Source: Dethiobacter sp.
GTDB taxonomy: Bacteria > Bacillota > Dethiobacteria > DTU022 > UBA8154
Direction: 5' to 3'
Assembly (NCBI GenBank): GCA_003605065.1
Contig: QZJM01000020.1
Location: 19,562 to 83,561, forward strand
DNA length: 64,000 bases
Positions 7,799-34,311 of the stretch are shown here, in pieces. The translations under genes were made by a program, and so were the position numbers. Position 1 is the first letter of the stretch. Each line of letters starts with the position of its first letter. The notes beneath the pieces are model-generated. The model ran no database searches. It was not told where the DNA came from and saw only the letters and a program-made list of their open reading frames with translations.

Positions 7799-7823
7799 AC
7801 CCGGGTCCTTTCTTCCCCCGGGT
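7799..7823 (+). terminator. candidate hairpin after mltG (ACCCGGG / CCCGGGT stem) with no T-run
   Basis: 7-bp perfect stem with an 11-nt loop. The weak U-tract means it may only attenuate. Confidence 0.3.
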
Positions 7824-7878
7824 ATATTTATGCCAGAAATGGTAAAGAATAGCTGCAAAAAGGAGATCGTTTCTCTTT

Positions 7879-9552: not shown

Positions 9553-9613
9553 TTTTAGTGCTGATAAATGGTAATATTAAGGGAAGAAATTTGAAAAAAA
9601 AGGCAGGAAACCT

Positions 9614-10375: not shown

Positions 10376-10379
10376 TACT

Positions 10380-13281: not shown

Positions 13282-13285
13282 TTGT

Positions 13286-13921
13286 ATGAGGATCGTTATT
13301 ATTGATGATCACCCCGTGGTACGCCAGGGCGTGCAGCAGACCCTGAGCCTGGAAAAGGAAATGGAAGTTGTAGGCACAGCCAGTTCCTGTCCGGATGGAG
13401 TGGAGCTGATCAACGCCCAGAAACCAGATATGGCCATCGTGGATATGAAAATGCCCGGCGGGGGCGGACTGGAGCTGATCCGCCAGGCCAGGAAACTGGT
13501 ACCACAGTGCCGTTTTATTATCCTCTCCTCTTACGCTTCCCACCGGGAAGTCTCAGAGGCCGTTTCTGAAAATGTGGAGGGCTATATCCTCAAGGAAGCC
13601 CTGCCGGAGGAACTTATTGCCGCTGTCAGGCTCGTGGCCAGGGGCCGCCGTTATTATGATCCGGAGATCATGGACAGCATTGTGAGCAAAGAAGAGAAGG
13701 ATCCCCTTAAAGATCTTACCGGCAGGGAACTGGAGATCCTCCAGGCCCTGGCTGAGGGGCTGAACAACAGGGCCATAGCGGAAAAGCTCTATATCAGTGA
13801 GAACACGGTCAAAAAGCATATCTGTAACCTTCTTGATAAGATGGAGTTTAATGACCGCACCCAGGCGGCCCTTTATGCTTTTTCCCGGGGGCTGAGCAAG
13901 GAACAGGGTATTTCTGAATAA
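13286..13921 (+). CDS. LuxR/NarL-family response regulator (DegU-like)
   Basis: REC domain (MRIVIIDDHP...IVDMKMPGG) plus a C-terminal HTH (LTGRELEILQALAEGLNNRAIAEKLYISENTVKKH). AGGAGGGG RBS. Confidence 0.9.
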   Translation: MRIVIIDDHPVVRQGVQQTLSLEKEMEVVGTASSCPDGVELINAQKPDMAIVDMKMPGGGGLELIRQARKLVPQCRFIILSSYASHREVSEAVSENVEGYILKEALPEELIAAVRLVARGRRYYDPEIMDSIVSKEEKDPLKDLTGRELEILQALAEGLNNRAIAEKLYISENTVKKHICNLLDKMEFNDRTQAALYAFSRGLSKEQGISE

Positions 13922-14021: not shown

Positions 14022-14281
14022 ATCTGTTAGGCCGCATTTTTACCATAATATATTTTGTAATTCATAACTTTTTCTTCATATAAAAGTGTGGTCTTAAGCG
14101 TAGAAATATTGTTGAAAAAAGAATTTTTTTATTCCGTACTACTTTGGGATTATTTATAAATCATCATTTCTGCCCATAAAAATTAGTTTTAAGCGTAATG
14201 TCTTTTTTGGCGTAACAGTTTAAAATCATAGTAGAAACCAGGATGGTTTTTTAAGAGACTATTAATGCACAAACCGCGATT

Positions 14282-14710
14282 ATGCACATGCAGGCTAATA
14301 GCGTAGCGGCTATTCTTGACCCCGGCGAAAATATTATCGTAGGGGTGGAGGGAACGATAGGTAACATTTCCTTTAGCGGGACCGGCTGCATTAATGTACT
14401 GGGGGAAGAGCAGCAAAAATCGGAAAAAGAAACACCAGGAGAGGAAGAAGAATTGGAAGAAGAGGAAGAGACCGGGGACAGCCTGGTTATGCTCTCCGGT
14501 AAGCTTGCCGGTGAAGTTCCTGACGATAACGGAACAGGCGGGGATCTTGAAACTGGCGACGGAGATAGCGGAAAAAACGAGGTGCTCAATACCGGTTCCG
14601 GCGAAGTTTCCGGAAAAGATGATAAGAGCATCTGGCTGGAGCAGTCCTCGGCACTATTAGAAGGTTTACCGGTACTAATCGATAACAGCAATGACGGTCT
14701 CACGGACTGA
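14282..14710 (+). CDS. acidic repeat protein. The ORF is interrupted by an in-frame TGA at 14708-14710, and the same frame continues with a conserved motif up to the TGA at 14801.
   Basis: Gly/Glu/Asp-rich. Contains copies of an LSG-LPV-ID-NG motif that also occurs in the SipW C-terminal tail. The alternative basic frame was rejected. The start codon is uncertain. Confidence 0.4.
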   Translation: MHMQANSVAAILDPGENIIVGVEGTIGNISFSGTGCINVLGEEQQKSEKETPGEEEELEEEEETGDSLVMLSGKLAGEVPDDNGTGGDLETGDGDSGKNEVLNTGSGEVSGKDDKSIWLEQSSALLEGLPVLIDNSNDGLTD

Positions 14711-14799
14711 GAAGAAAAGGCTTTCGAACTGCTGCAGGGTTGGCCTGTGATCATTGAGGATGACGCCGGTGATTTTAGGGCAGTAAGGTGGGGGATACG

Positions 14800-16098
14800 A
14801 TGAACGATAAGCTGGGAAAAAATAAAAATCAAAAAAAGGAACAAAAAAGACCGGGGGCCCTGGTCCGCATGTTCGGAGTTTTGGGCAATATAATTTTTGT
14901 TTTAATGCTTCTGGTAATGTCGGCGCTGGTATTTTTTCTGGTACAGAGCAAGATCGCGGGAAACCCCCCCGGCGTGGCGGGTTACCAGATGCTCATAGTT
15001 ATCAGCGGCAGCATGAACCCCACCTTCGATACGGGGAGCGTGGTATTTGTGCGACCAATGGACCCAAAAAACCTTGCTGCCGGGGATATTATTACTTTTA
15101 AGGGTTCCGGGGGAAGCGACAAATTAACAACCCACCGGATAGTGGACGTGCATACGGAAGACGGCCTTGGTTTTACCACCCGCGGGGATGCCAACAATGT
15201 CAATGACCCGAACATAGTTCCGGCCCGAAACGTAGTCGGGAAAGTGGTCCTGGCCATACCTTATGCCGGCTACCTGTTCAATTATGTGCAGACCAAAGAA
15301 GGTTATATAGCTTTAATCCTGATACCCGGAGTGCTGATCATTTTTACGGAGCTGTACAAGCTCCTTAAATATGCCAGGCAGGTTGACAAAAAAGAAAGCA
15401 CCGGAAAGAAGGACAAAAGACTGGCTTCCGGAAAGCATCCAGAGGAGGCGGCAGCTGAAATAGAAAATGAAGAGGACGAAGCTGCCCTGCCCGGCGGGGA
15501 AGAACCGGCATTTGTTCCCTATTACGCTCATAAAGCAGGGTTTACGGCAGGTAATTATGAGAATGCTGACTACCCGGTCAGCCAGGTCCGTGACAGGCGT
15601 GAGAATGAAGTTAAAGAGGTGCTGGAGAAAGAAAAAATAATAGCTGCTGTGAAAAAAACTGCCGCAGTGGATGAATTAGCTTTTCTAAATAAAGCTGCGG
15701 TTGTGGATAAAACTGCCGTAGCAAATGAAGCTGCCGCTGTGGATGAAATAGCCGCTGTAGATAAAACTGACATCATAAAAGAAGCTGTCATTCTAAAAGA
15801 AACTGCCGTCGTAAATGAAGCTGTCGTCATAGATGAAATAACTGTTCTAGATAAGATAGCCGCTCTCCCCGCCCAGAGCAGCGAATTCACCCCCGTGACC
15901 AGCCGTAAGCCTTACCACGGCGGGAATGAAGAAGCCAGGGAAAAAATTTGGAGAGAGCGGGCTTTTGCCATCTTGAGCGGTCTGCCCGTGGTTGTGGATG
16001 AAAATGGAGAAGAAAGGGTCTGGAAAGAGCGTGCCTTCGCCATGCTGAGCGGTTTGGCCGTGGTTATTGATGATTCCGGGAAAGAAGAGGTTAGCTAG
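14800..16098 (+). CDS. sipW: SipW-type signal peptidase I (S26B, archaeal/ER-type) with a roughly 240-aa C-terminal repeat-rich extension
   Basis: N-terminal TM segment, catalytic box VISGSMNPTFDTGSVVFV and a second TM (GYIALILIPGVLIIF). AAGGTGGGGG RBS. The extension contains Ala/Val/Asp-rich tandem repeats and two WxERAFAxLSGLPVVxD motifs. Confidence 0.8.
   Translation: MNDKLGKNKNQKKEQKRPGALVRMFGVLGNIIFVLMLLVMSALVFFLVQSKIAGNPPGVAGYQMLIVISGSMNPTFDTGSVVFVRPMDPKNLAAGDIITFKGSGGSDKLTTHRIVDVHTEDGLGFTTRGDANNVNDPNIVPARNVVGKVVLAIPYAGYLFNYVQTKEGYIALILIPGVLIIFTELYKLLKYARQVDKKESTGKKDKRLASGKHPEEAAAEIENEEDEAALPGGEEPAFVPYYAHKAGFTAGNYENADYPVSQVRDRRENEVKEVLEKEKIIAAVKKTAAVDELAFLNKAAVVDKTAVANEAAAVDEIAAVDKTDIIKEAVILKETAVVNEAVVIDEITVLDKIAALPAQSSEFTPVTSRKPYHGGNEEAREKIWRERAFAILSGLPVVVDENGEERVWKERAFAMLSGLAVVIDDSGKEEVS
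15640..15860 (+). repeat. in-frame tandem nucleotide repeats (about 30-60 bp units) encoding an AAVDE/AVVNE-type low-complexity segment inside sipW
   Basis: Seen in the sequence: units such as aaaactgccg-agt-gatgaa-tagc recur about six times. Confidence 0.6.
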
Positions 16099-16102
16099 CC
16101 CT

Positions 16103-16360
16103 ATGACCCAAAGAATCATGGTAAGTATAACAATCCTTACGCTTATGGCGGTGCTGATCGGCGGCGCCACCATGGCCTGGTTTACAGCCCAGGCGGAAAT
16201 AACCGATAACGTATTCCAGGCCGGGACACTGACCATTGACGCACAAGAAACGTGGGCATACGAAAGCGGGCCGTTGACTAACTGGAACCCCGTTTTCAAC
16301 GGGACAAGCAATAAAAACCTCAAAATTGGGGCAGGACTGCTGCAGGGTATGCCGGAATAG
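16103..16360 (+). CDS. short TasA/camelysin-family secreted protein with a SipW-cognate signal peptide
   Basis: Its signal peptide ends in GGATMAWFTAQAEITDNVFQAGTLTID, the SipW-cognate class. It lies immediately downstream of sipW. It is only about 86 aa, against about 260 aa for TasA. Confidence 0.6.
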   Translation: MTQRIMVSITILTLMAVLIGGATMAWFTAQAEITDNVFQAGTLTIDAQETWAYESGPLTNWNPVFNGTSNKNLKIGAGLLQGMPE

Positions 16361-16678
16361 GTGATATCGGCAATGCACCTGTATTTATGGAAACAAGGGA
16401 CATTAAAGGGTTTTTTTAAGGAAATACATTGAAAATTGTAAAAATCTGCAGGAATTTACATTACTTTCATCGAACTAAAGCATCAGAAAACGGTGGAAGA
16501 GAATGACGAGCTTTAGAGTTGCAGGGGCAAATAGGTTTTAATCTAAGGATCCCGGCCGGTGTTACCGGGACGACCGGAACCTGGTACAGCATGCCTTCTA
16601 CCGAACGTCAAAAAACCCTTTTTATTTCTTATAGAGCACCTGTTATTTAAAAAAATTAAAGCGGGCGGTGTAAAAAAA

Positions 16679-18820
16679 ATGGAGCGGAAGAAGCGTCTGG
16701 ATGAAATACATGGGCAGATCATGGAGCTTAAAGATCGTTTTAAACATTTGGGCTACAGGCTGATCCAAGAGGGGGAAAGACTTAAAAACCCCGGTTGTCC
16801 GCCGGACGATGTTCTCTTTCAGGAGGTTGCGGAGGAGACCAAAAAATTTAAACTCCTGACGGAAAAACTGGCAGCGGCGGGAAGAGCATTATCCTGGTCC
16901 GGGCTTAATGGCGGAGTTGATTCCCTGGACAAAATGGAGGAAATGTGGAAAGGTCTTGCCGGGCATTTAACCTACCTATATGTACTGGAACAACAAACGG
17001 AGCAGGCCATTGCTCTTGTTAAAAGAGCTATGCAAGCAACCCTGCCGGGAAAACAATTATCGGCAGAACTGGAGTCTTTCAAGAAAAAACTGCGCTATTA
17101 CGAAGAAGTTCTTTCCCGGAATGTGGATGATGAAGAAGCGGCGGAAATGCGCCGCCAGTTCTTGACGGGGGTTCACCCCCTGATCGCTTTTTTAAGGCTG
17201 GCGGAGGAGTACCTGGGAGACCATGAAGAAGCTTCAGAACTTTTTCTGGTGTCAGCGCGGGAATTTGGAAACTTGCTTACCGTAGCAGCGGCAAGGGGAA
17301 ACCTTATTCTTCCTCAGTCAGATCAAAAAGGTGCAGAAAGAAATGAAGAGGAAGTAAAAATAAAATACGAAGCAAAAAAGGTTAAAGAAGTAGAAAAAAA
17401 GGAAAGCGGAAGTAAGAGTTACAGCGGTTATTTAGATGAAATGAATGTCGAACCGGTGGCCGGCAGGAAGCTGAATCAGCGTGAGAGGCTGGTAGAGCAG
17501 ATCTTTAACCTGATCAGGGATGGTAAGCTGGGACCGGCTTTTTGGCTGAATTGTTACTGTGAACAGGTATGGGAAAAGGCGCCGCTGCCTTCCTGGCTGA
17601 TAAAAGCCGTAGAGATTGCGGAAGTTGTCGAAGGCGATGGCGGCGTGGCCGCCGGATGGCTTTCTTACATTTACAAGCACAATAATTTTGAGAGCCTGCT
17701 GGAAAAGAAAACTGGAGGAGAAAATAAGTTGGTGTTCAGTCTTTTCTCAGCTGCTTCCCTGTTGAGACCGGCCCTGGTGGCACCCGGAAGTGGTGCACCT
17801 CTCCTCCTGAAAAAAATAGGTGGTCTGCCCGGGGGTATTCAGGAACTCTGCGCTGTGCTGGCCGGTAACGGGGAGCAGGTTGGATTGGATTGGAAAAAGG
17901 AATTACAGGCGCTCTCCCACGAGGTAACGACCTGGCAGAAACGGAACCAGAAGTTGACCCTGGCCTCCCCCCTGGCGGTAAAGTTATGGGAGAAGATGCA
18001 GGAAGAAGGAGAATTACTCTATAAACTCCTGCAGCCTGTGAAAGAAAACGCAAAGGGTGCCCTAGAAGATATCCGCATGCTTGTCTCCTACCTGCGTGAA
18101 GAAAACAATCTCAAGAAGGAAGTGGCCGATCTTTATTACGGAATGCAGGATTCAAAAGAGTCCCTGGAAATTTTCCATATACCTGGGTCCTGGCAGGTGC
18201 TGGCCCGTTTAAGAGAGGCTTTAAAGCTGGCTGAACGCTGGTTAAAGCTCCACGAGAGAATTACCAAAAATAAGGAAGCAAGAACTCCCCAGAAAGATGA
18301 TTTGCGGGAACCCCTGTTGTCAGCCAGGAAGGACCTGGAGGGGGCGGCCAGGAAGTATGGGGATGATACCATGGTTAGTGCGGGAATCGCTTTATGCGAG
18401 CGTGTGTTTGATTCCCTGGAAAAATATTTTCAGGAAAGAAGGACGGAAATTCCCACAGCAGAAGTACTGTCTGCTCTGGAGTTGAGCAAGAACCCCCAGT
18501 TGAAACTTAAACCATCCTGGAAGCCTAAAGCAGAAACTGTGGAAAAGCTGGGAAAAGCCCTGGTGGAACTTTTAAATGAAGGAGAAGTAAATACCGGAAA
18601 GGCAGAGACAAAAAACGATGATCTGGAATTTGCTGTGAGAAAAGAGGCCGGCACTTATAATCTTTCGAATAACGATACAGCACTTCCGACCCCTAATCTG
18701 AGAAAGACGTGGGAAAGAGATGAAGTATTATCACCACAGGAACGGGATTTTTTAATGAACACCCTGAGAAGCTTTTATAAGGAAAGAACCGAACAGCAAC
18801 AAGACTTAAATGAAAGCTAA
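16679..18820 (+). CDS. large hypothetical soluble protein (about 713 aa) with no domain I recognise
   Basis: Long ORF, Glu/Lys-rich and predicted helical. Its stop overlaps the start of the next gene, which suggests translational coupling. The track ORF begins at 16559, but MERKKRLDEI at 16679 is the first plausible start. Confidence 0.55.
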   Translation: MERKKRLDEIHGQIMELKDRFKHLGYRLIQEGERLKNPGCPPDDVLFQEVAEETKKFKLLTEKLAAAGRALSWSGLNGGVDSLDKMEEMWKGLAGHLTYLYVLEQQTEQAIALVKRAMQATLPGKQLSAELESFKKKLRYYEEVLSRNVDDEEAAEMRRQFLTGVHPLIAFLRLAEEYLGDHEEASELFLVSAREFGNLLTVAAARGNLILPQSDQKGAERNEEEVKIKYEAKKVKEVEKKESGSKSYSGYLDEMNVEPVAGRKLNQRERLVEQIFNLIRDGKLGPAFWLNCYCEQVWEKAPLPSWLIKAVEIAEVVEGDGGVAAGWLSYIYKHNNFESLLEKKTGGENKLVFSLFSAASLLRPALVAPGSGAPLLLKKIGGLPGGIQELCAVLAGNGEQVGLDWKKELQALSHEVTTWQKRNQKLTLASPLAVKLWEKMQEEGELLYKLLQPVKENAKGALEDIRMLVSYLREENNLKKEVADLYYGMQDSKESLEIFHIPGSWQVLARLREALKLAERWLKLHERITKNKEARTPQKDDLREPLLSARKDLEGAARKYGDDTMVSAGIALCERVFDSLEKYFQERRTEIPTAEVLSALELSKNPQLKLKPSWKPKAETVEKLGKALVELLNEGEVNTGKAETKNDDLEFAVRKEAGTYNLSNNDTALPTPNLRKTWERDEVLSPQERDFLMNTLRSFYKERTEQQQDLNES

Positions 18821-21386
18821 AGAGAAAGGAATGATTAATTCCTTGCCTTCTCCTATCAATGCTACGGGAATACTTTTACACGGCAGCTTGAAGGAGCCTC
18901 CTCTTGCCGAAGAGGCCTTAAGGGCCTTAAATTCAGAGGCTTATTCTTCGGCGGGGTTTAAAAAGGCTGCCGGTTCGGATTATTACTCCTACAGGCAGCT
19001 GGAAGAACTTATTTGTACCCTCACGGAAGCTGAGGATGTCCTGGTGGTTAATAACCTCATGGCGGCGGCCTTTCTAGTTTTCCATACCCTGGCGCGGGGC
19101 AGGGAGATTATTGTTTCCAGGAGGGATCTGCACCAAAATGCTTTTTCCGCTTCCCTGGCCGGGGTTGCCCAGAGTTGTGGGGCATACCTGAAAGAAGTGG
19201 GAGGGAAGGAAACCGCCGCACCCGGGGATTATCAGGGTGCTGTTACGGAGCAGTCGGCCCTGTTTTTGACGATTAACAGTCTGGGCAGTTCTAAAAGGGA
19301 AGCTTTCCATGAAGGTATGCCTGCCGGCTTGGGGAAGCCTGAGCTGGCAGTGGTGGGTATTCTTGATAATGCTGCGCTGCTGGATCTGGCACCTTTCGGG
19401 CTGCCCGACGTGCTGCAGGTCCAAAAGCTGATCACCGGAGGGTTTGACATTGTTGTTTTTAGGGGCGATAAGCTCCTGGGAGGGCCCCCGGCAGGAATTA
19501 TAGCCGGAAAAGGCAGGTATCTTTCCCTGCTTAAGCAGGCAACGCTGGCTTCCGCTTTAAGCGCTGGCAGGATCGATAGGGCGACGCTGGAAGCGACTTT
19601 GGCATTATACCTGGACAAGGAAGAGGCTCTGAAGAAAATCCCTTTGCTGAGCATGATTTCGGCGCCACCCCCCCGTATTGAAAAACGGGCCTGGAAACTT
19701 GTTGAAGAGCTGAAGGATTCACTGGAAGGGGTGTTTAATATCAGTATGACTGCCGGGGAAGCCCATATCACTGAGGAAAGCAACGGTCTGGGGGCACTCC
19801 CCAGTTTTCAGGTGTCTATCAGTTCAGAGAAGCTTTCTGCCGCTCAGATTTCTGAACTGCTGACTAAAGGTAATCCACCGGTAATTCCATGTGAATTGAA
19901 AGAGGCGATTTTGCTTGATCTCAGATCTGTCCAGGAAAAAGAAGATGATCTTTTACTTAATTCCATACTTGATTCCCTGGGAGGAGACCGCAAGGAAATC
20001 CGGGTGCTCGATACAGTTCCCAGTCCCATCTGGACGTTAAATGAAGAGAATACCTTTATTTATGCCAACAAAGCCTGTGAGAATTTCTGGGGGTTGGAGA
20101 ACAGCAGCATCTTAGGTAAAGCAATAAGTGAGATTCTTGCCCCGGGAGAGGCAGGAGCCTTATTAAAGAGTATAAAGACGGTAATGAAAAGCAAAGAAAA
20201 AATCGCCATCGAACTAAAGATGAAATCTTTTGGGAACAAGGATAAATGGATGGATATTATTCTTGTACCGCTCTTAAATGGTCAGGAAGAAATTTCCGGG
20301 GTTACATTTACGGCGCATGATGTTACAGAGCGCAAGCGTACTGAAGAAGAATTGAAATATATCAGTATGCATGATTCACTGACGGGTCTTTATAACCGGG
20401 TTTATTTTGAAGAGGAGATGCGTCGGCTAAACACTCACCGGCACTACCCCCTAAGCATTATTGTCTGTGATGTGGACGGTTTGAAGTTTACAAATGATAT
20501 CCTGGGACATGAAAAAGGAGACAAGCTTTTAAAGACGGCGTCTAATCTTATTAAAAAGCCTTTTCGTACATCCGATGTGGTGGCCAGGGTAGGAGGAGAC
20601 GAGTTTGCCATTATTCTGCCCCGGACCAATGAAAAGACCGCGGAGGAGATCTGTGAACGTATAAAAAAGAATGTCGAAAAATACAACCAGGAAAAGAAAG
20701 GTATTCCCTTGAGCCTTCCCCTTGGTTTTGCCACAGGAGAAGAGGCCTCCGGGGGAATTCTGGAAATATTTAAAAATGCGGACAGCAATATGTATAAAAA
20801 TAAATTTGCCCATGGCAAAGCAGTGAAAAGGCAGGTTTTTGAATCTCTGCTGGAAATTCTGGCGGAGAAAGACTTTATGAGCAAGAGTAAAGCAGAACGA
20901 CTGCAGGAAATGCTGCTGTTGCTTGGACAGGCTGTGGGGATGTCACCGGGGGAAATAAAAAATATTTTATTGCTGTCCAGGGTATATGATATTGGCAAGG
21001 TGAATATCGATGATTCCATTCTCTTTAAAGAAGGAGCGTTAAGTGACGCAGAGTGGGAGGAAATTAAACGCCACCCGGAAACAGGTTATCGTATTGCCCG
21101 TTTTTCAGCGGAAATGAACCCCATCGCCGATTTCATTATGCAGCACCATGAATGGTGGGACGGGAATGGTTATCCTGCCGGCTTAAAGGGGAAGGATATC
21201 CACCTTTACCCCCGCATTTTGGCTATTGTGGACGCCTATCAGGCCATGACCAGTCACAGGCCTTACAGGGAGCTACTTTCCCGTGAAGAAGCCATTCAGG
21301 AACTGAAGAGATGCAGCGGAATTCAGTTCGATCCCCGGCTGGTAGAGATCTTTATAAACTTAATCGACCAGGAGAACTTAGTTTAA
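18810..21386 (+). CDS. multidomain signalling protein: degenerate SelA-like domain, PAS, GGDEF (diguanylate cyclase) and HD-GYP (c-di-GMP phosphodiesterase)
   Basis: The N-terminal roughly 300 aa align to selenocysteine synthase SelA (VLVVNNLMAAAFLV...REIIVSRRDL...FRGDKLLGGPPAGIIAGK...RATLEATLALYL). A PAS domain follows. The GGDEF domain carries RVGGDEFAIIL. The HD-GYP domain carries HHEWWDGNGYPAGLKG. An alternative start is the ATG at 18831. Confidence 0.85.
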   Translation: MKAKEKGMINSLPSPINATGILLHGSLKEPPLAEEALRALNSEAYSSAGFKKAAGSDYYSYRQLEELICTLTEAEDVLVVNNLMAAAFLVFHTLARGREIIVSRRDLHQNAFSASLAGVAQSCGAYLKEVGGKETAAPGDYQGAVTEQSALFLTINSLGSSKREAFHEGMPAGLGKPELAVVGILDNAALLDLAPFGLPDVLQVQKLITGGFDIVVFRGDKLLGGPPAGIIAGKGRYLSLLKQATLASALSAGRIDRATLEATLALYLDKEEALKKIPLLSMISAPPPRIEKRAWKLVEELKDSLEGVFNISMTAGEAHITEESNGLGALPSFQVSISSEKLSAAQISELLTKGNPPVIPCELKEAILLDLRSVQEKEDDLLLNSILDSLGGDRKEIRVLDTVPSPIWTLNEENTFIYANKACENFWGLENSSILGKAISEILAPGEAGALLKSIKTVMKSKEKIAIELKMKSFGNKDKWMDIILVPLLNGQEEISGVTFTAHDVTERKRTEEELKYISMHDSLTGLYNRVYFEEEMRRLNTHRHYPLSIIVCDVDGLKFTNDILGHEKGDKLLKTASNLIKKPFRTSDVVARVGGDEFAIILPRTNEKTAEEICERIKKNVEKYNQEKKGIPLSLPLGFATGEEASGGILEIFKNADSNMYKNKFAHGKAVKRQVFESLLEILAEKDFMSKSKAERLQEMLLLLGQAVGMSPGEIKNILLLSRVYDIGKVNIDDSILFKEGALSDAEWEEIKRHPETGYRIARFSAEMNPIADFIMQHHEWWDGNGYPAGLKGKDIHLYPRILAIVDAYQAMTSHRPYRELLSREEAIQELKRCSGIQFDPRLVEIFINLIDQENLV

Positions 21387-21452
21387 TTTATTCAAGTTTA
21401 CGGGTTTTAAGGTAGAGACAAAAATGTGTCAGCCGTAAGGGAGTGAAAAGAA

Positions 21453-22667
21453 ATGGCAGAAGTGGTTATTACCGGTTTAGGTCCTGTGGCCCCCAACGGT
21501 GTAGGTAAAGAGAGCTTCTGGAATGCCCTTAAAGAAGGGAAGTCGGGTATTCGCCGCATCAGCCGCTTTGACCCGGACGGTAGTATTTCCCGGATAGCCG
21601 GTGAGGTTCCACCTGAATGGGTGGAGGCTATCAGCCCCTTTCCCGGAACAAAAAGAGCCTGGAGCACCCATATGGTTATAACTGCGGCACACCTGGCCAT
21701 GGATGATGCTGGCATAAGCAAAGCGGAATTTTCCAAGAGCCTGTCCGGTATCTATGTGGGGATCAGCACCAATGACATGGAGTTTGGTGAACGGGAATAT
21801 GAAACGTTTAAACACTCCGGTTCCACCAAAGCTAATGTTATCTCTTCTTCCTTTCCTCATGCCGCTGCCAGTGAAATAGCCGGCGAATTTAAGTGTGCGG
21901 GGCGGGTAATGACTGTCTCTACGGCATGTTCTTCCGGTATTTTGAGTATCATCTCTGGTGCGGAATCTATCCTGAGGGGCGAGAACGATCTGGTTTTAGC
22001 CGGCGGAGGGGATGCCCCCCTGACTCCCTTTGTTGTTTCCTGTTTTTCCTCTGCGGGCCTTCATCCCACCTCTTATAATGACAGTCCCCTTATGGCCAGC
22101 AGGCCTTTTGATGCTAAAAGGGACGGAGGCGTTTTATCCGAGGGGGCGGGAATGATCGTTATCGAAAACTCCGAGAGGGCTCGTTTAAGGGGGGCAAAGG
22201 TTTATGCCAGGATCAGCGGCTGGGGAGTTGCCAACGCCACTTCCCCGTTGTCTGTGACTTTATCTTTTGTCTCTTCCATAACCCAGGCTCTGCAAAAAGC
22301 CAAACTACCCCTGAATATGCTGGATTATATCTGTGCCCATGCACCCGGCATTAAATTTACAGATAAAGTCGAAACAGAAGCGATTAAAAATGTTTTTGGA
22401 CAGTACGCTTACAACCTGCCGGTTAGCTCCATTAAATCTATGATAGGCAACCCCCTGTCTGCGGCAGGCCCTTTGCAGGTAATTACCACAGCCCTGGTTA
22501 TACAAAATAAGTTTATCCCACCCACCGTAAACTATGAGCACCCTGACCCGGCCTGCGATCTGGATTACGTTCCCAACAGGGGGCGTGTGGCCAGGGTAAG
22601 AAATGCCCTGATAAACCTTTTAGGTGTTGGTGGCTGCATTGTTTCCATGGTTATAACCGAGCCATAG
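21453..22667 (+). CDS. beta-ketoacyl-ACP synthase I/II (FabF/FabB)-like thiolase-fold protein with a non-canonical active site
   Basis: KAS N- and C-domains with VSTACSSG (Cys) and CAHAPG (His). The second catalytic His is replaced by Asn (KSMIGNPLSAAG against canonical KSMTGHLLGAAG). No other fab genes are nearby. Confidence 0.8.
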   Translation: MAEVVITGLGPVAPNGVGKESFWNALKEGKSGIRRISRFDPDGSISRIAGEVPPEWVEAISPFPGTKRAWSTHMVITAAHLAMDDAGISKAEFSKSLSGIYVGISTNDMEFGEREYETFKHSGSTKANVISSSFPHAAASEIAGEFKCAGRVMTVSTACSSGILSIISGAESILRGENDLVLAGGGDAPLTPFVVSCFSSAGLHPTSYNDSPLMASRPFDAKRDGGVLSEGAGMIVIENSERARLRGAKVYARISGWGVANATSPLSVTLSFVSSITQALQKAKLPLNMLDYICAHAPGIKFTDKVETEAIKNVFGQYAYNLPVSSIKSMIGNPLSAAGPLQVITTALVIQNKFIPPTVNYEHPDPACDLDYVPNRGRVARVRNALINLLGVGGCIVSMVITEP

Positions 22668-22670
22668 AGA

Positions 22671-25160
22671 ATGGAGAAAAGTATGATTATTTTTACTATT
22701 GTATTGTTAGCTCTGATAGCAGTGGCTCACGTAGTAATGGGCACAATTATTTATAAAAAGGCTCCCCGTGCTATGCTCAACCGTTTATGCCTGGGTTTTG
22801 CGCTAAATGCCAGTTTATGGAGTGTTTCTGTTCTTTTTGTTATTCTGCAAAATGATTACGAGCAGGCCCTTTTCTGGATTAGAATGTCACATGCCTTGGC
22901 GGCGACTACACCCTCGTTTATGTTTGCCCTGGTTTATTGTTTTAAAGCCGGGATTAAGTATCCTTACAGAAAAGTGTTCTGGGTTTTTTTGTTCAGCCTG
23001 GCACTGGCCTTGTTGTGTTTGACGCCTGCCGTTATTAAGGATGTAGTCCTGGCCGCGGAAGGTAAAATTAAGATTTATGGCCCCGTTTTCCCTCTTTATA
23101 CGATCTTTTTCGCAGTGGTGCCTGTCCTTTCCCTGTACAACCTTTTCCGGCAGCTGCGCCAGTCACGGGGCCTGGTTCGTTTCCAAATACGTTATTTTTT
23201 CGGTGGTATTCTTATTGCTTTTATTTTAGGTAGCCTTGTTAACCTTTTTCTTCCGCTGATGGGCATTACAACAGATAACCTGCGCAGTTTGGGGCCTGTA
23301 TTTACGCTTATAAGCGTTATCTCCATTACTTATGCCATTGCTAAGTACCGTCTGATGGATATAAGCTTAGCCCTTCGCCGGATCATTGCCAATTCCCTGT
23401 CCATAATGCTGGTGGCCGGGATTTATATCTTGGCAATTTTCCTGGCAAAAAAGCAATTTATGGCTTATTCGGATTATTTAACATTATTTTTAATTATTCT
23501 GCTGGTTGTTTCATTCCAGACAATAAAGAACCAGGTACAGTCATTAATTGACCGGTACTTTTTCCGTGGTGCTTATAATTACTTTACGACTCTGAGAAAT
23601 GTTACTAAAGCCATGGTTTCCATTCTTAACAGGGAAAAGCTCCTTTCCTTTCTGACAGACAAGATTATGGAGACTATTTATATCCGGGGGGCTGCTTTTT
23701 TTCTAAGGGAACAAGACGGCTCCTTTACCGCTGTAACAAAAAAATATCTAGCACCTTTTCTTCCTTTGGAGAAAGAATACAGCAAATTGGAGCCCGAAAA
23801 CCCCCTGATCCTGCTCCTGGAAAAAAGGGGAGATGTACTGCTGAAAACTGATTTAAGGGGCGTTGAGCCTGAAGAAAAAAGAGAACTTCTTGTGGGAGAA
23901 ATGAAAAAACTTCATTCTGAAGTGGCTGTGCCGCTGTTTATAGAAGGGAAAATGGACGGTGTTTTTTTCCTGGGTTACAAATTGTCGGGAGAGCCGTATT
24001 CCAAGGAGGATGTAAACCTGCTTTCCACTTTAAGTTATCAGATTGCCGTTTCTCTAAAGAATGCCCGGCTTTACCATGAGATCCTGGAGATTAAGCAATA
24101 TCTGGAGAATGTCCTGGAAAATATGGGTAACGGGTTGATAGCCGTTAATGCGGGGGGAAGGATCACTACTTTTAACAGCACAGCGGAGAAACTTACAGGT
24201 TTAAAAGCCAGGGAGGTACTGGGTAAAAAGGTGGATAAAACCCTTGATCCCGGGTTGTCCTGGCAGTTGCTGCAGACCTTAAATAACGGTCAGAGGAGAA
24301 GTGAAGTGGAAGTAGAGGTGCCGGTAGGTAACTTGACATGCTTTTTGTGCTGCAGCACGGCCCTGGTAGAGTTGAACGATTCAAGGGAACGCGGAGCGAT
24401 TATGGCTCTAAGCGATATCACCCGTATTAAAGAGCTGGAGAGAGAAAAAAGCGAAGTGCAAAGGCTGGCTTCCCTGGGGGAAATGGCCGCAGGAATGGCG
24501 CACGAAATAAAAAACCCGCTTGTATCCATTAAAACCTTTGCGGAACTCCTGCCAGAAAAATACGAAAACCATGAGTTTCGTTACAGTTTTTCCCAGATAG
24601 TATCCCAGGAAATAGAACGTATCAACAACCTGGTCATGGGGCTTCTTAAAATTTCCAGAGATCAGCAGGTCTATAATTATGATGAGGTTAATATTGAAGT
24701 TCTGCTGGACGAAATTTTTCTTTTAGTACTTCCCCAGCTTAATGCGCAAAATATAGGCGTTTATAAGCATTATGAACCGGACGTTCCCGTTATTCAGGCT
24801 GACAGGGAACAGTTAAAACAAGCTCTTTTTAATATATGTTTAAATGGAATTCAGGCCATGCCCGGGGGTGGGGAGCTGAGGGTGGAAATTTTACCTGTTA
24901 TGGTTCTCGCTGGTGAGACGGCCGGCGTTCTTTCCCCGGGGAAAAAGGTAAAGATAGTGATTGAAGATACGGGAATAGGGATTTCTTCTCCGGAAAAAGA
25001 AAAGATATTTGATCCATTTTTTACTACCAAGGCTGATGGGGTGGGAATCGGCTTGAGTATAAGCCATCGTGTGATCACCAGCCATGGGGGGAGCATTCAG
25101 GTCCGCAGCAGTAAAGGTGAAGGGACTGTTTTTGAGATTTACCTTCCGGCCGGGGATTAA
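22671..25160 (+). CDS. sensor histidine kinase: N-terminal 7TM sensor, GAF, PAS, HisKA, HATPase
   Basis: Seven N-terminal TM segments, an H-box AHEIKNPLVSIKTFAELL and complete N/G1/G2 boxes (DTGIGI, GVGIGLS). It starts 4 nt after the KAS-like gene. Confidence 0.85.
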   Translation: MEKSMIIFTIVLLALIAVAHVVMGTIIYKKAPRAMLNRLCLGFALNASLWSVSVLFVILQNDYEQALFWIRMSHALAATTPSFMFALVYCFKAGIKYPYRKVFWVFLFSLALALLCLTPAVIKDVVLAAEGKIKIYGPVFPLYTIFFAVVPVLSLYNLFRQLRQSRGLVRFQIRYFFGGILIAFILGSLVNLFLPLMGITTDNLRSLGPVFTLISVISITYAIAKYRLMDISLALRRIIANSLSIMLVAGIYILAIFLAKKQFMAYSDYLTLFLIILLVVSFQTIKNQVQSLIDRYFFRGAYNYFTTLRNVTKAMVSILNREKLLSFLTDKIMETIYIRGAAFFLREQDGSFTAVTKKYLAPFLPLEKEYSKLEPENPLILLLEKRGDVLLKTDLRGVEPEEKRELLVGEMKKLHSEVAVPLFIEGKMDGVFFLGYKLSGEPYSKEDVNLLSTLSYQIAVSLKNARLYHEILEIKQYLENVLENMGNGLIAVNAGGRITTFNSTAEKLTGLKAREVLGKKVDKTLDPGLSWQLLQTLNNGQRRSEVEVEVPVGNLTCFLCCSTALVELNDSRERGAIMALSDITRIKELEREKSEVQRLASLGEMAAGMAHEIKNPLVSIKTFAELLPEKYENHEFRYSFSQIVSQEIERINNLVMGLLKISRDQQVYNYDEVNIEVLLDEIFLLVLPQLNAQNIGVYKHYEPDVPVIQADREQLKQALFNICLNGIQAMPGGGELRVEILPVMVLAGETAGVLSPGKKVKIVIEDTGIGISSPEKEKIFDPFFTTKADGVGIGLSISHRVITSHGGSIQVRSSKGEGTVFEIYLPAGD

Positions 25161-25213
25161 TTAATTTGCAGGGTGTTATTCAAAAATAAGTCGCGAGAGA
25201 TAGATTATCCACA

Positions 25214-27226
25214 TTGGAAAGGCAGTTGTATAAGTTGAAGCTGGTTGTGCTCATTTCCCAAAAAGAAAGTATCTTAAGGAAAATTAAAGAGTTTATCCCG
25301 GAAGACTATATCCTCCTGGAGGGTGAACCCGGGCCGAAAGGTTTACAGCTGCTGGGGAATATAGTTTCCGGTGTTATCCTGGTGGATACCAGTATCCACG
25401 GTATTCAAATGTGGATCGGAGAGGCCTTGCGGCTGAGAGCTGATTTAACCTACCTGGGAATTGCCGATAGAGCGGCTGCTGAAAATTTTCCATTCCCATT
25501 GTTTTATGACTTCATTTCTCCGCCTTTTAATTCCCGGCAGGTAAGCAGTTTGCTCGAGCGGGCCTGGGAAAGGGGTCAGCTTAATTTTGAACTTAAGACG
25601 CTTAAAAAAAATCCCGGGGGTAATGATGTAAACAGCTCTTTAAACAGCTCTTCCTCCCATCGCCTCAAGGAGCATGTTTTGTGTGAATTCTCCAGGGCGT
25701 TGAGTAATAATTTTAACCGGAACCGTCTCCTGGAGCTTTTTATGGATGCCGTTGCAGAACTGGTACCTGTGGGGAAATTATCACTTTTGTTATTTAACGA
25801 GAACCTGAATAAGTTTATAATTTCGGCGCAAAGAGGGCTGGATCCGCTTTACTGTTCCGGATTACTGTTTAATCCTTCCTCGGGGCTGCTTGCCTGGTTA
25901 ACCGGGGAGGGACGCATCCTTCGTACCGAAGAAGCAGCGGGCTTTGCTAAAACTTCCTCAGAAGTCCTCCAGGAGATGAAGCTGCTGCAGGCTGTCGTTT
26001 GTATACCGCTGGTGGTCCATGGGCAGTTGGTGGGAACTCTTAACCTGGGTCCCAAGGTGACCGGTTCGCTGTTCTCTGACGATGAGCTTGAGGTGCTTTA
26101 TATACTGTCCGGAAATGTTGCTATGGCCTTACGAGATATTGAGCTGCATCACCAGATACGCTATCAAAAATATTTTATTGAAAATATTCTTCAGCGTATG
26201 AATAGCGGTGTTATAGCTATAAACCAGGAAAATCTGATCATAACTTTCAACTATCGCGCCGGAAAAATACTGTCTTTTCAGCCGGAAGAGGTAATGGGTA
26301 AGGATCTGCGTTGTTTGCCCAGCCCCCTTGGAGATTTGCTCTATGACACCCTTACTATGGGCAGGGTGTATCATAAAGAGGAGATTATACTGGCATTCGG
26401 GCATATTCCCCTGGAATTCAGTACCTATCAATTGCTGGATGAAGAGCGGGCTGTTGCCGGGAGTGTGATGATCTTTGATGATATATCAGAAAGAAAACAG
26501 CTGGAGGTAGAGCGCCGCCAGGCCGATCAACTGGATGTTCTTAACAAGTTTGTGGGGCAGCTGGCTCATGAAATTAAAAATCCGATGGTGGCTATACAGA
26601 CTTTTTGCGAACTTTTACCGGAAAAATATGAAGACAGCTCTTTCCGTGATTTTTTTACCCATACCGTTCGCCAGGAAGTTCAGAGGTTAAATGAACTGGT
26701 GGAGCAGCTTATTGCTTTTTCCACTTCACTTTCCTACAAGTTCATGCCTGTAGAGATTCATGAGACCCTGGACAGGGCCCTCTTAATGCTGCAGGAACAG
26801 GGTAAGGGGCAGAAGACCTCCGTTAATACTTCTTATTCACCGGATAAGTTTAACATTAGGGCTGATAAAATCTTACTGGCCAGGTCTTTTTCTTATCTCC
26901 TGAGAAACTCTTTTCAGGCTATGGAAAAAGGAGGCAGCCTTTTTATCCATACATTTTTTGATGGCTCTTTATTTGAAAATGGAGGCGTTGGTATTCACTT
27001 CTGGGATTCCGAAACAAAAACGGAGATCAGTAACGTGGAGAAATTATTTAATCCCCTTTGTGCCCGGGAGAGCGGGTATATATCCCTGGAGCTGCCGGTT
27101 TGCCGTAAAATTATTGAGGATCACGGCGGACATGTCCGAGCGTCTTTAACCAAGGACAAATATCTTAAGTTTGAGGTATATTTGCCGATATTTTCTGGTG
27201 AAGGGGGTGAAAATGTTGCCACATAA
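25214..27226 (+). CDS. paralogous cytoplasmic sensor histidine kinase (pseudo-receiver-like N-terminus, GAF, PAS, HisKA) with a degenerate ATP-binding domain
   Basis: H-box LAHEIKNPMVAIQTFCELL is present. The G1 (DxGxG) and G2 (GxGxGL) boxes of the HATPase domain are not recognisable. The TTG start is uncertain. Confidence 0.7.
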   Translation: MERQLYKLKLVVLISQKESILRKIKEFIPEDYILLEGEPGPKGLQLLGNIVSGVILVDTSIHGIQMWIGEALRLRADLTYLGIADRAAAENFPFPLFYDFISPPFNSRQVSSLLERAWERGQLNFELKTLKKNPGGNDVNSSLNSSSSHRLKEHVLCEFSRALSNNFNRNRLLELFMDAVAELVPVGKLSLLLFNENLNKFIISAQRGLDPLYCSGLLFNPSSGLLAWLTGEGRILRTEEAAGFAKTSSEVLQEMKLLQAVVCIPLVVHGQLVGTLNLGPKVTGSLFSDDELEVLYILSGNVAMALRDIELHHQIRYQKYFIENILQRMNSGVIAINQENLIITFNYRAGKILSFQPEEVMGKDLRCLPSPLGDLLYDTLTMGRVYHKEEIILAFGHIPLEFSTYQLLDEERAVAGSVMIFDDISERKQLEVERRQADQLDVLNKFVGQLAHEIKNPMVAIQTFCELLPEKYEDSSFRDFFTHTVRQEVQRLNELVEQLIAFSTSLSYKFMPVEIHETLDRALLMLQEQGKGQKTSVNTSYSPDKFNIRADKILLARSFSYLLRNSFQAMEKGGSLFIHTFFDGSLFENGGVGIHFWDSETKTEISNVEKLFNPLCARESGYISLELPVCRKIIEDHGGHVRASLTKDKYLKFEVYLPIFSGEGGENVAT

Positions 27227-28247
27227 GCCCAGAATACTGATCGTCGATGATGAACTGGGACCAAGGGAAGCGCTGAGGATGATTTTATCTGATGATTACG
27301 ATGTGGTTGCGGCCAGTAACGGGAATCAGGCCATGGAAAACCTTTCCCGGTTAGAATTTGATCTGGTGATACTGGATATCAGGATGCCCGATATCAGCGG
27401 TATTGACCTTCTGGCCGAGGTGAGGAAAAAAGCTCCGGATACGGAGGTTGTTATGATTACCGCTTATGCCTCCGTGGATACGGCTACCAATGCCCTGCGA
27501 CTCGGTGCCCTGGATTATCTCATTAAACCATTTGATCGGCATTCCGTGAAGGAGGCCGTGGAAAAAGGCCTTTCACGCCGCAGTAAAACTAAAACGCTTA
27601 AGAGTAAGCTGGACGAACTTGAGCTTGTCAACGAGTCCCTGAAAGCGGAAGCTGAAAATGCTTACAATAATATCCACAAGCATTATACGGAAACGGTGCG
27701 GTCGCTGGTAACAGCCATCGATGCTAAAGATTCCTATACCAAGGGGCACCAGGAAAGGGTCGCCATTTATGCTATGCTCCTGGCGGTGGAAGTAAATCTT
27801 TCTGTCGGTGAAATGAGCCTGCTCCAACAGGCAGCGGTACTCCATGATATAGGAAAGATCGGGGTGCTGGAGAACATTCTCAGGAAAAAAGGGCCGCTTA
27901 CACCGGAGGAGTTTAAATTAATTAAACAGCATCCTGTCATTGGGGCGGGGATTATTTCTCCTGTAGAGTTCCTTAAAGAAGCAGTCCCCATAGTTCTTCA
28001 TCATCACGAGAAATTTGATGGGACGGGCTATCCCCGGGGTCTTAAGGGTTTGCACATACCAGAAGGTGCCAGGATCATCACAATTGCCGATGCTGTAGAT
28101 GCCATGTTAACTGAACGCCCTTATGCGCAGGCTAAAACACCCTCGCAGGTAAGAGAGCAGCTGCTCCTCTGCTCGGGAACACAGTTTGATCCCCGGCTGG
28201 TAAGGATTGCTTTAAAAATAGACCTGCCTTCCAGACGTATACTCTAA
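27213..28247 (+). CDS. response regulator with an HD-GYP output domain (c-di-GMP phosphodiesterase class)
   Basis: REC domain (ILIVDDE...LVILDIRMPD) followed by HD-GYP (HHHEKFDGTGYPRGLKG). It overlaps the previous kinase by 14 nt. GGGGG RBS. Confidence 0.85.
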   Translation: MLPHKPRILIVDDELGPREALRMILSDDYDVVAASNGNQAMENLSRLEFDLVILDIRMPDISGIDLLAEVRKKAPDTEVVMITAYASVDTATNALRLGALDYLIKPFDRHSVKEAVEKGLSRRSKTKTLKSKLDELELVNESLKAEAENAYNNIHKHYTETVRSLVTAIDAKDSYTKGHQERVAIYAMLLAVEVNLSVGEMSLLQQAAVLHDIGKIGVLENILRKKGPLTPEEFKLIKQHPVIGAGIISPVEFLKEAVPIVLHHHEKFDGTGYPRGLKGLHIPEGARIITIADAVDAMLTERPYAQAKTPSQVREQLLLCSGTQFDPRLVRIALKIDLPSRRIL

Positions 28248-28281: not shown

Positions 28282-28310
28282 CCTTAAGGAAGGTTTAAGG
28301 GTCTTTTTTT
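28282..28310 (+). terminator. probable rho-independent terminator after the signalling operon
   Basis: CCTTAA...TTAAGG hairpin followed by a T7 run. Confidence 0.5.
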
Positions 28311-28323
28311 CTTTATGGGCAGG

Positions 28324-31415: not shown

Positions 31416-31501
31416 GCTTGGTAATAATATAGGAGTTTTAAAAATTTTTTAGCGATAAAAGTCGATATTTTATTATGTTTTTCGGGGAGGAACCGCTTTT
31501 G

Positions 31502-33184: not shown

Positions 33185-33196
33185 GGGGATAAAAAG

Positions 33197-34216
33197 ATGG
33201 ATATCGACGATCTGTTAAGACAGGCAGTGGACCGGAAAGCTTCTGATTTGCATTTAACTGTGGGGGCGCCTCCTATTTTAAGGTTGAATGGTGCTTTAAC
33301 TCCTGTAAATACCCTACCGCTTAAACTTGAAGATACCCGGGCGCTGGCAGAGCAGATGTTGAACAAGGAAGAATATAATTCTTTTCAGGAGAAAGGGGAG
33401 GTAGATCTATCTTACAGTATAACCGGGGTAGGAAGGTTTCGTGTCAACATTTACCGGCAGCGGGGGACGGTCAGTATCGCGGCCAGGGTTTTAAATACGG
33501 AAATTCCCACCATTTCCTCTCTTGGGCTTCCGGAGATCTTATGCGAACTGGTCAAGAGCCCGAAAGGGTTAATTCTGGTTACCGGCCCCACGGGGAGCGG
33601 AAAGTCAACCACCCTGGCCGCCATGATCGATTACATTAACGAAAACAGTGCCCTGCACATTCTGACACTGGAAGATCCCATCGAATACCAGCACAAACAT
33701 AAAAAAAGTATTGTCAACCAGAGAGAAATGGGAGCGGACAGTAAATCTTTTCCCAATGCCCTGCGGGCAGCGCTGCGTCAGGATCCTGATGTTATCCTGG
33801 TGGGAGAAATGAGGGATCTGGAAACCACTGCCATTGCCATGACCGCAGCAGAGACGGGACACCTGGTTATGGCTACGCTGCATACGATCGACGCGCCCCA
33901 GACCATTGACCGGATTATTGATGTTTTCCCTCCCAGCCAGCAGCAGCAGATCCGCGTGCAGCTCTCCAACACCCTGGCAGGGATTATCTCCCAGCGTCTT
34001 CTGCCCCGCAAAGACGGTAAGGGCAGGGTCGCGGCACTGGAAATATTAGTCAGTACTCCGGCGGTGCGCAATTTAATCAGGGAAGGGAAAATTCATCAAA
34101 TTTATTCCGTTTTACAGACCGGGTCCAAGTTTGGTATGCAGACCATGGAGAGCCACCTGCAGCACCTTTATGACAAGGGCCTGGTCAGGGATGTGGACTC
34201 CTTGAACCGGCGGTAA
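33197..34216 (+). CDS. pilT: twitching motility (retraction) ATPase PilT
   Basis: Walker A GPTGSGKST, the conserved AIRNLIREGK motif and a size of about 340 aa. Confidence 0.95.
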   Translation: MDIDDLLRQAVDRKASDLHLTVGAPPILRLNGALTPVNTLPLKLEDTRALAEQMLNKEEYNSFQEKGEVDLSYSITGVGRFRVNIYRQRGTVSIAARVLNTEIPTISSLGLPEILCELVKSPKGLILVTGPTGSGKSTTLAAMIDYINENSALHILTLEDPIEYQHKHKKSIVNQREMGADSKSFPNALRAALRQDPDVILVGEMRDLETTAIAMTAAETGHLVMATLHTIDAPQTIDRIIDVFPPSQQQQIRVQLSNTLAGIISQRLLPRKDGKGRVAALEILVSTPAVRNLIREGKIHQIYSVLQTGSKFGMQTMESHLQHLYDKGLVRDVDSLNRR

Positions 34217-34311
34217 ACAGGAAATCAAACAGGAAGCAGTTCTTTATCCGGAGCAACCGCAGTTTAAAGAAGCAGAAGAGCAGTAATTACAGGTTTTAAG
34301 GGGAGGTACCT

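Follow-up and report, generated by a model that had tools for sequence, protein, structure and literature searches.

The analysed window, a stretch of 64,000 nucleotides on a metagenome-assembled genome (MAG) contig of Dethiobacter sp. (Bacillota, Dethiobacteria), carries six genes (g1 to g6) which we read as a composite operon for the control of cyclic di-GMP (c-di-GMP). Judging from the sequence, and with about even credence, we propose that a signal synthase (g3) and a receptor kinase (g4) would drive the breakdown of c-di-GMP, opposed by a predicted cyclase (g2). We favour this synthase-receptor arrangement because the conserved condensing enzyme is repeatedly accompanied by a kinase with multiple transmembrane (TM) segments and by one or the other of two unrelated methylating enzymes, and because the predicted output of the associated regulator is c-di-GMP hydrolysis only. 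The six open reading frames (ORFs) all lie on the + strand and span positions 16679-28247, with neighbours that overlap or are separated by gaps of at most 66 nt. The tight, co-directional linkage described in an earlier reading of the same DNA (hereafter the original prediction) was found for all six genes at the expected positions, and its domain calls, including the SelA-like domain and the degenerate HATPase, survived profile annotation with Pfam and NCBIfam. The first three genes correspond to the consecutive NCBI entries RJX27994.1 (g1), RJX27995.1 (g2) and RJX27996.1 (g3). The features of the locus are as follows.

16679..18820, + strand: g1, an all-alpha protein of 713 aa that is paired with g2 in module A (g1-g2).
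18810..21386, + strand: g2 (RJX27995.1), 858 aa, comprising a SelA-derived domain, PAS, GGDEF and a degenerate HD-GYP; it overlaps g1 by 11 nt.
18855..19931, + strand: SelA-derived domain of g2 (aa 16-374), of the fold-type-I pyridoxal phosphate (PLP) class.
20007..20339, + strand: PAS domain of g2 (aa 400-510; PAS_4, E = 1.6e-13).
20367..20810, + strand: GGDEF domain of g2 (aa 520-667); the motif is intact and the I-site reads RTSD.
20847..21341, + strand: degenerate HD-GYP domain of g2 (aa 680-844).
21367..21452, no strand assigned: g2/g3 junction with the 66-nt intergenic region, where relatives carry a class I S-adenosylmethionine (SAM) methyltransferase of ~250 aa.
21453..22667, + strand: g3 (RJX27996.1), a 404-aa ketosynthase of the ketoacyl synthase (KAS) I/II fold, 66 nt after g2.
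22671..25160, + strand: g4, an 829-aa membrane sensor histidine kinase, 3 nt after g3.
25214..27226, + strand: g5, a 670-aa soluble pseudokinase, 53 nt after g4.
27171 or 27213..28247, + strand: g6, a REC-HD-GYP response regulator overlapping g5.
28283..28313, + strand: terminator-like hairpin (CCUUAAG...CUUAAGG followed by a U-run), weak and AT-rich.

Conservation of the gene neighbourhood, which the original prediction had put forward as its own check, was borne out. The order g1, g2, methyltransferase, ketosynthase, histidine kinase, pseudokinase and response regulator was found in at least 12 lineages, with protein identities of 35-75% and with differing, unrelated flanks. The idea of a single six-gene system did not hold and was replaced by two separable modules, namely g1-g2 and an old, broadly conserved core made of the ketosynthase, the kinase, the pseudokinase and the regulator. 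Loci L020 and L021/L022 hold the core preceded by the methyltransferase and without g1-g2, and the g1-g2 pair stands alone in two distant MAGs. In L041 (7454-9943; a 272-kb marine-sediment contig), g1 is broken into three frameshifted ORFs, g2 is cut down to GGDEF-HD-GYP and the methyltransferase is absent; despite the decay of g1 and g2, the genes from the ketosynthase to the regulator are intact. Since the two modules each occur apart, and the core outlasts g1-g2 in L041, the stable unit is the Cys-His-Asn ketosynthase with the 7TM kinase, in most cases together with a methylase, a regulator and a further protein of kinase type, and g1-g2 is accessory to it. One MAG with the seven-gene operon (L012, JAGVAS010000056.1) is labelled Desulfovibrio sp. 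(DeMMO6_36), all other carriers being Bacillota; the contig may have been mis-binned or mislabelled.

The coupling of the ketosynthase to the kinase was quantified in a metagenome census seeded on the ketosynthase motifs only, which returned 77 loci, 58 of them with enough downstream sequence. In 54 of these 58 loci, the ketosynthase was immediately followed by a g4-like kinase gene, the 7TM region being matched in 52 of the 54, and the intergenic gaps ranged from 3 nt to about 100 nt. Among the nearer loci (ketosynthase identity of at least 46%), a REC-HD-GYP gene was located downstream in 10 of 13, and in 14 of 17 the ketosynthase was preceded by a class I SAM methyltransferase. The distant clade (below 46% identity) carried a B12-binding radical-SAM enzyme upstream in 18 of 28 loci, or in ~29 loci with partial contigs. 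The replacement of one methylating enzyme by a non-orthologous one at the same position argues for a biosynthetic pair with the ketosynthase. Examples of the radical-SAM genes upstream of the ketosynthase are L045:8314-9984, L052:8333-9979 and L057:5735-7456. The suggestion of a small molecule made or sensed within the operon thus gained ground from the recurrent pair and the recurrent upstream methylating enzymes, and lost its more specific form: a single PLP/acyl pathway joining the SelA-derived domain to the ketosynthase is not supported, because this domain is part of the accessory module and, in the wider family, is not conserved together with the ketosynthase.

Pfam assigned the N- and C-terminal ketoacyl-synt domains to g3. 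The protein scored 316.9 bits on the fabF model TIGR03150, against a cut-off of 493.75 bits, and remained under every NCBIfam equivalog cut-off; its best PDB matches were FabF structures (E = 1e-69, ~40% identity). Comparison with these structures confirmed the Cys-His-Asn triad that had been noticed in the FabF-like enzyme. It consists of Cys159 (TACSSG), His296 (CAHAPG) and Asn333 (KSMIGNPL, where FabF has KSMTGHLL with His340), and Lys328 is also kept. The signature SSIKSMIGNP was borne by ~120 clusters of relatives. Since none of them varies at the catalytic Cys, His, Asn or Lys, g3 looks like a working condensing enzyme. An exact-sequence lookup of the window ketosynthase for independent contigs gave no record in the index used.

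The g4 product was matched by the Pfam models HisKA_7TM, GAF, PAS, HisKA and HATPase_c (81.5 bits), and its residues 1-281 contain 8-9 hydrophobic segments. All kinase boxes are complete, with the H box AHEIKNP, the N box NGIQAM, the G1 box DTGIG, the F box FDPFFTTK and the G2 box GVGIGL, in agreement with its designation as a 7TM-GAF-PAS histidine kinase. Its neighbour g5 matched GAF, PAS and HisKA, and its HATPase_c score of 24.5 bits fell under the gathering score of 26.4. The degeneration of the G1 and G2 boxes in g5 was seen here as described (DSETK and YISLEL, respectively, with a variable N-box Asn) and turned out to be a conserved trait: the same state, beside an invariant H box (HEIKNP), is common to every relative. 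The two proteins are 28% identical overall and 41-51% identical in the dimerization and histidine phosphotransfer (DHp) region. Conserved loss of the ATP-lid motifs next to an intact H box fits a protein which would not autophosphorylate and which would serve as a partner of g4, in line with the phosphorelay or phosphatase role first suggested for it. The first ~120 residues of g5 had been described as pseudo-receiver-like. They aligned with the REC domain of g6 in hhalign (80% probability, E = 1.5e-5) and keep Asp58, but gave no Pfam match; the acidic pair DD is replaced by QK, the Thr is lost and the Lys is Pro or Ser. A pseudo-receiver assignment for this region is therefore moderately supported.

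The response regulator g6 has an RpfG-type architecture, both domains being matched by Pfam (REC, E = 1e-29; HD_5, E = 7.7e-33). Its REC pocket is complete and invariant (VDDE, ILDIRMP with D55, ITAY and IKPF), and its HD-GYP domain keeps seven of the eight metal ligands of PmGH; E185 is replaced by Tyr, which marks the Y/F subgroup, and the HHHEKFDGTGYP motif is present. With phospho-acceptor residues and ligands retained, the REC-HD-GYP call was upheld, and g6 is a predicted c-di-GMP phosphodiesterase.

Each part of the SelA-like-PAS-GGDEF-HD-GYP architecture proposed for g2 was recovered by Pfam (SelA, E = 7.6e-61; PAS; GGDEF, E = 1.2e-35; HD_5, E = 6.2e-29). The GGDEF motif and the RxxD I-site (RTSDVVARVGGDEF) are invariant in 13 lineages. 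In the HD-GYP domain, the PmGH ligands E185, H189 and H221 are replaced by M, K and Y, so that three of the eight ligands are lost, the HD-motif His among them; the GYP block (HHEWWDGNGYP) is intact. At the position of the HD-motif His, relatives have Y, H, C or L. In PmGH, the H189A and H221A substitutions abolish activity (PMC4159591). The operon had been thought to turn over c-di-GMP with two HD-GYP domains. The ligand analysis set aside two active domains and left g6 as the one credible phosphodiesterase; since only this HD-GYP looks catalytic, g2 is best read as a predicted diguanylate cyclase with a degenerate HD-GYP domain.

The SelA part of g2 aligned with residues 68-437 of Aquifex aeolicus SelA (E = 2e-42), the core and C-terminal domains being 33-36% identical. 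The tRNA(Sec)-binding N-domain (A. aeolicus residues 1-66) is absent, the alignment to the SelA equivalog TIGR00474 begins at model position 72, and the score on this model (225 bits) is under the cut-off of 267.9. In SelA, Arg86, Arg312 and Arg315 bind selenophosphate and Lys285 binds PLP (PMC4607533). The equivalents of the three arginines are E, S and S in g2 and never Arg in its relatives. On these sequence features, namely the missing tRNA-binding N-domain and the replaced selenophosphate arginines, the SelA part is judged to be SelA-derived and incapable of acting as a selenocysteine synthase. The equivalent of Lys285 is kept in g2 (GDKLLGGP) and in 10 close lineages and is lost in the distant L016 and L017; therefore, the SelA-derived domain can function without catalysis. 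Fusions of the g2 type are very rare (only ~10 clusters in 5.8e9 proteins).

The partner of g2 in the accessory module, g1, had been called an orphan. It has no Pfam or NCBIfam match, in keeping with that label, but remote homologues do exist: a profile search of 1.84e9 representatives recovered 848 relatives, none of them named and none matching a defence system. Hundreds of these are proteins of 1,800-2,100 aa in which a g1-like N-terminal part of ~700 aa is followed by a central STAND-type P-loop NTPase (AAA_22/nSTAND1). Examples of such fusions are proteins P0269, P0277 and P0291. We therefore take g1 to be a free-standing version of an uncharacterised module of signalling type. A defence role for g1 and its STAND relatives was considered and dropped, PADLOC having returned no meaningful match.

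The g2/g3 junction differs between the window and its relatives. Close relatives have a seven-gene form with the methyltransferase; the window is without it, alone among the recovered g2-fusion neighbourhoods, and a search for methyltransferase homologues across the 64-kb window found none. The window appears to have lost the gene. Attempts to place the methyltransferase of the relatives in a specific family (BioC, fatty-acid O-methyltransferase or UbiE) were abandoned, as they gave generic sub-threshold matches only (UbiE/Methyltransf_11). A Logan contig (L007, SRR22388160) is 98.6% identical to window positions 14055-21367, and this identity ends 20 nt before the g2 stop codon. Beyond window position 21367 (L007:7521), L007 continues with a methyltransferase and then a ketosynthase 67% identical to that of the window. 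Compared with L001, the methyltransferase and the ketosynthase of L007 are 83% and 81% identical, and g2 is only 57% identical. The switch reflects either a strain-to-strain exchange of the cassette or a chimeric contig.

From gene content, residue states, conservation and linkage, we infer the enzyme activities, the signal identity, the phosphorylation partners and the outputs of the operon as follows. The ketosynthase g3 probably makes an acyl-derived, hydrophobic small molecule, with the help in most relatives of the adjacent methylating enzyme. The product would be sensed in or at the membrane by g4, which probably phosphorylates g6 and thereby switches on c-di-GMP hydrolysis. Unable to bind ATP, g5 probably also acts on g6, either as a phosphatase controlled by cytoplasmic signals through its GAF and PAS domains or jointly with g4, in a heterodimer or a relay, so that the regulator would come under push-pull control; these roles are suggested by what g5 retains, namely the His that accepts the phosphoryl group, the HExxN phosphatase motif and a DHp region like that of g4. 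The opposing cyclase would be g2, gated by its PAS domain and by the SelA-derived PLP-type domain, which is probably no longer able to bind tRNA or selenophosphate, and working together with the helical g1. The net effect would be that two separately sensed inputs set the local level of c-di-GMP, with a nearby type IV pilus ATPase bearing an MshEN domain and SipW/TasA-like genes as its likely readers.

Several observations weigh against the synthase-receptor proposal. The cassette contains no acyl carrier protein, thioesterase, acyl-CoA ligase or exporter, and a literature search found no ligand for the HisKA_7TM domain. The window has no methylating enzyme, which means that its product, if any, differs from that of the relatives, or that the synthase arm is impaired. 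Some activity could persist in the degenerate HD-GYP domain of g2, given that RpfG is active with only six metal ligands (PMC4159591). The adjacency of the genes also fits a membrane-lipid enzyme co-expressed with a sensor of membrane state, and membrane-lipid remodelling is the main alternative. The ketosynthase and the methylase would then modify the fatty acids of the cell's own membrane (for example in chain length or methyl branching) and the 7TM kinase would sense the physical state of the membrane in a DesK-like manner; the genes would share an operon for co-expression only, with no diffusible signal. The ~40% identity of g3 to FabF structures marks it as a FabF paralogue, as such a role would have it; the cassette lacks an export or release enzyme, methylases beside fatty-acid enzymes could yield branched lipids, and the multi-TM sensor has no extracytoplasmic domain. 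We nevertheless consider membrane homeostasis unlikely. The regulator would act through c-di-GMP hydrolysis and not through transcription of lipid genes, a housekeeping-type role leaves unexplained both why the ketosynthase adjoins a single kinase family in 54 of 58 loci across phyla and why the His-to-Asn change is strictly conserved, and the methylase is dispensable in several lineages.

Two further explanations keep the gene coupling and give the ketosynthase another task. It might make no signal and, as a metabolic co-sensor, bind acyl-ACP or malonyl-ACP (ACP, acyl carrier protein) and report the status of fatty-acid synthesis to the kinase by protein contact. The tight coupling of the two genes agrees with this, and the physical interaction of RpfF with RpfC is a precedent for contact between a synthase and a sensor; however, the invariance of the catalytic residues over ~120 clusters indicates an enzyme under selection, and the recurrent link to two kinds of methylating enzyme is hard to square with a pure binder, so that we regard this explanation as improbable. 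A small secondary-metabolite cluster with its own regulators, whose antibiotic or lipid product is not the ligand of the kinase, appears very improbable to us. A ketosynthase and a tailoring methylase do make a minimal biosynthetic pair, and one relative adjoins a LanM/Nif11 lanthipeptide locus, but the cassette has no carrier protein, further tailoring enzyme, resistance gene or transporter, its regulator has no DNA-binding output, and the flanks are unrelated between loci while the link to the kinase is constant. The remaining doubt concerns the contig itself. The window comes from a MAG, and the 98.6%-identical L007 diverges from it exactly at the g2/g3 junction; both facts count in favour of an assembly chimera, in which g1-g2 of one population were joined to the ketosynthase, kinase, pseudokinase and regulator genes of another and the absence of the methyltransferase is an artefact. 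We give this little credence. The identity pattern suggests that the mosaic is L007 itself (its methyltransferase and ketosynthase are near those of L001 and its g2 is not), and g3-g6 of the window are about as far from all relatives as its g1-g2. The nearest relatives of the ketosynthase (L018/L019, 71% identity) also have no methyltransferase upstream and share the synteny upstream of the window locus described below, and g1, g2 and the ketosynthase are each present on three contig records. A chimera, if real, would alter the methyltransferase detail only, and the system would still exist.

The limits of the operon were refined as follows. For g1, NCBI places the start at a GTG at 16559 (giving 753 aa), whereas the alignment of homologues favours the ATG at 16679. 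The true start of g6 is likely the ATG at 27213. The terminator predicted at 28282-28310 was recovered in part: there is a hairpin with a U-run at 28283-28313, but it is weak (dG = -10.8 kcal/mol, z-score -1.5), and a consensus scan called no intrinsic terminator there. An Rfam scan of the 64-kb window at gathering thresholds detected no known RNA and no c-di-GMP riboswitch.

Genes around the operon include pilB, pilT and pilC of a type IV pilus (31475-35583), 3 kb downstream. The N-terminus of PilB has an MshEN domain with two RLG...Q repeats (RLGxxLIxxGAI...Q) resembling a c-di-GMP-binding motif, which makes PilB a candidate local c-di-GMP effector. On the upstream side, a 436-aa ORF (14788-16098) shows SipW-type signal-peptidase motifs (SGSMNPTF and TRGDANNVND) and a long repeat-rich tail, and an 85-aa ORF (16104-16360) shows a signal peptide of the TasA/camelysin class, cognate to SipW; both assignments were made by eye and have no profile match. 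These SipW/TasA-like ORFs are biofilm-matrix-type genes located directly upstream of the c-di-GMP operon. Within the repeat-rich tail of the SipW-like ORF, L007 (1834-2020) holds 186 nt absent from the window at 15866. A HisKA_3 kinase and a LuxR-type regulator are encoded further upstream (11572-13921), and a similar 572-aa HisKA_3 kinase (L017:1868-3586) lies divergently beside a stand-alone g1-g2 pair in a Syntrophomonadaceae MAG; this kinase may be a second recurrent neighbour. The genes for a penicillin-binding protein, an ATP-binding cassette (ABC) ATPase and an ABC-3 permease (7822-11264) are syntenic with those of L009, L002, L006, L001 and L018 (76-80% nucleotide identity). In the relatives they abut g1 or the ketosynthase directly, and in the window about 5-7 kb of additional genes intervene. 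This shared upstream synteny ruled out a mobile island and indicates a chromosomal locus with lineage-specific insertions and losses.

Taken further, two statements might hold jointly, a combination that we advance tentatively and think somewhat more likely wrong than right. The cassette of Cys-His-Asn ketosynthase and 7TM kinase, in most cases with a methylating enzyme, would represent an unrecognised, broad family of lipid-type cell-cell signalling, carried by anaerobic Bacillota, Armatimonadota, Omnitrophota and others, with c-di-GMP hydrolysis as the output in the branch nearest to the window; and the SelA-derived domain, recruited from the selenocysteine machinery, would form with g1 a new class of sensory input to diguanylate cyclases. 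If so, the cassette would reveal a new chemistry by which bacterial signals are synthesised and a class of ligand for the orphan HisKA_7TM domain, as well as a natural pair of a kinase and a conserved, ATP-lid-less pseudokinase working on one c-di-GMP phosphodiesterase. The g2 fusion would also mark the first recruitment of the catalytic core of SelA to second-messenger signalling. The organisms that carry the cassette are little-studied anaerobes of the subsurface, soda lakes, digesters and sediments, in which cell-cell communication is almost unexplored, and the components are soluble or standard membrane proteins open to routine assays.

Among known systems, the circuit logic is closest to that of Rpf/DSF (diffusible signal factor) in Xanthomonas. 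In RpfF/RpfC/RpfG, the gene for an enzyme of the fatty-acid pathway lies next to that for a multi-TM sensor kinase, whose cognate regulator is a REC-HD-GYP phosphodiesterase (PMC4159695, PMC4159591), and g6 has the domain architecture of RpfG. The synthase here is, however, a thiolase-fold ketosynthase, whereas RpfF is a crotonase, of which there is none in the locus; g4 is a non-hybrid 7TM-GAF-PAS kinase, in contrast to the hybrid HK-REC-HPt (histidine kinase, receiver and histidine phosphotransfer) arrangement of RpfC. The present system also has an extra pseudokinase and an optional methylase, its sequence homology to Rpf is limited to generic domains, and its hosts are anaerobic Bacillota and members of other phyla, while Rpf occurs in Xanthomonadales. 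In the Phc system of Ralstonia, the methyltransferase PhcB makes methyl 3-hydroxymyristate, which is read by the PhcS kinase of the same operon, with PhcR and PhcQ as atypical two-component proteins (PMC8578825, PMC11960443). The likeness lies in a SAM methyltransferase working on a fatty-acid intermediate (in the relatives of the window), a membrane histidine kinase and atypical two-component proteins downstream. In contrast, the output of Phc is transcriptional, via PhcA, and would here be c-di-GMP hydrolysis; moreover, Phc has no ketosynthase, the window has no methyltransferase, and homology to the Phc parts is again limited to generic domains.

At the level of single components, g3 resembles FabF/KAS II in fold and length and has kept its nucleophilic Cys, first His and Lys. 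The differences are an Asn in place of the second catalytic His (in all members), AHAPG for AHGTST and, in the window, GVGG for GFGG, as well as the genomic context, which is signalling and not a fab cluster. Signal synthases of the thiolase superfamily with a Cys-His-Asn triad include PpyS (photopyrones), DarB (dialkylresorcinols) and PqsD/PqsBC (quinolones), which have the KAS III/FabH fold and work with LuxR- or LysR-type receptors; g3, unlike these, is of the KAS I/II fold and has a histidine kinase as its counterpart. The SelA-derived domain of g2 differs from SelA in being fused to PAS-GGDEF-HD-GYP and may resemble in function the PLP-fold sensor domains of MocR/GabR regulators. The searchable literature contained no description of a SelA-GGDEF fusion, of a signal synthase with the KAS I/II fold and a Cys-His-Asn triad, or of the whole cassette, and a literature search for clusters of radical SAM, ketosynthase and kinase genes gave nothing relevant. 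The circuit logic is known from Rpf and Phc, and the components and their combination are new.

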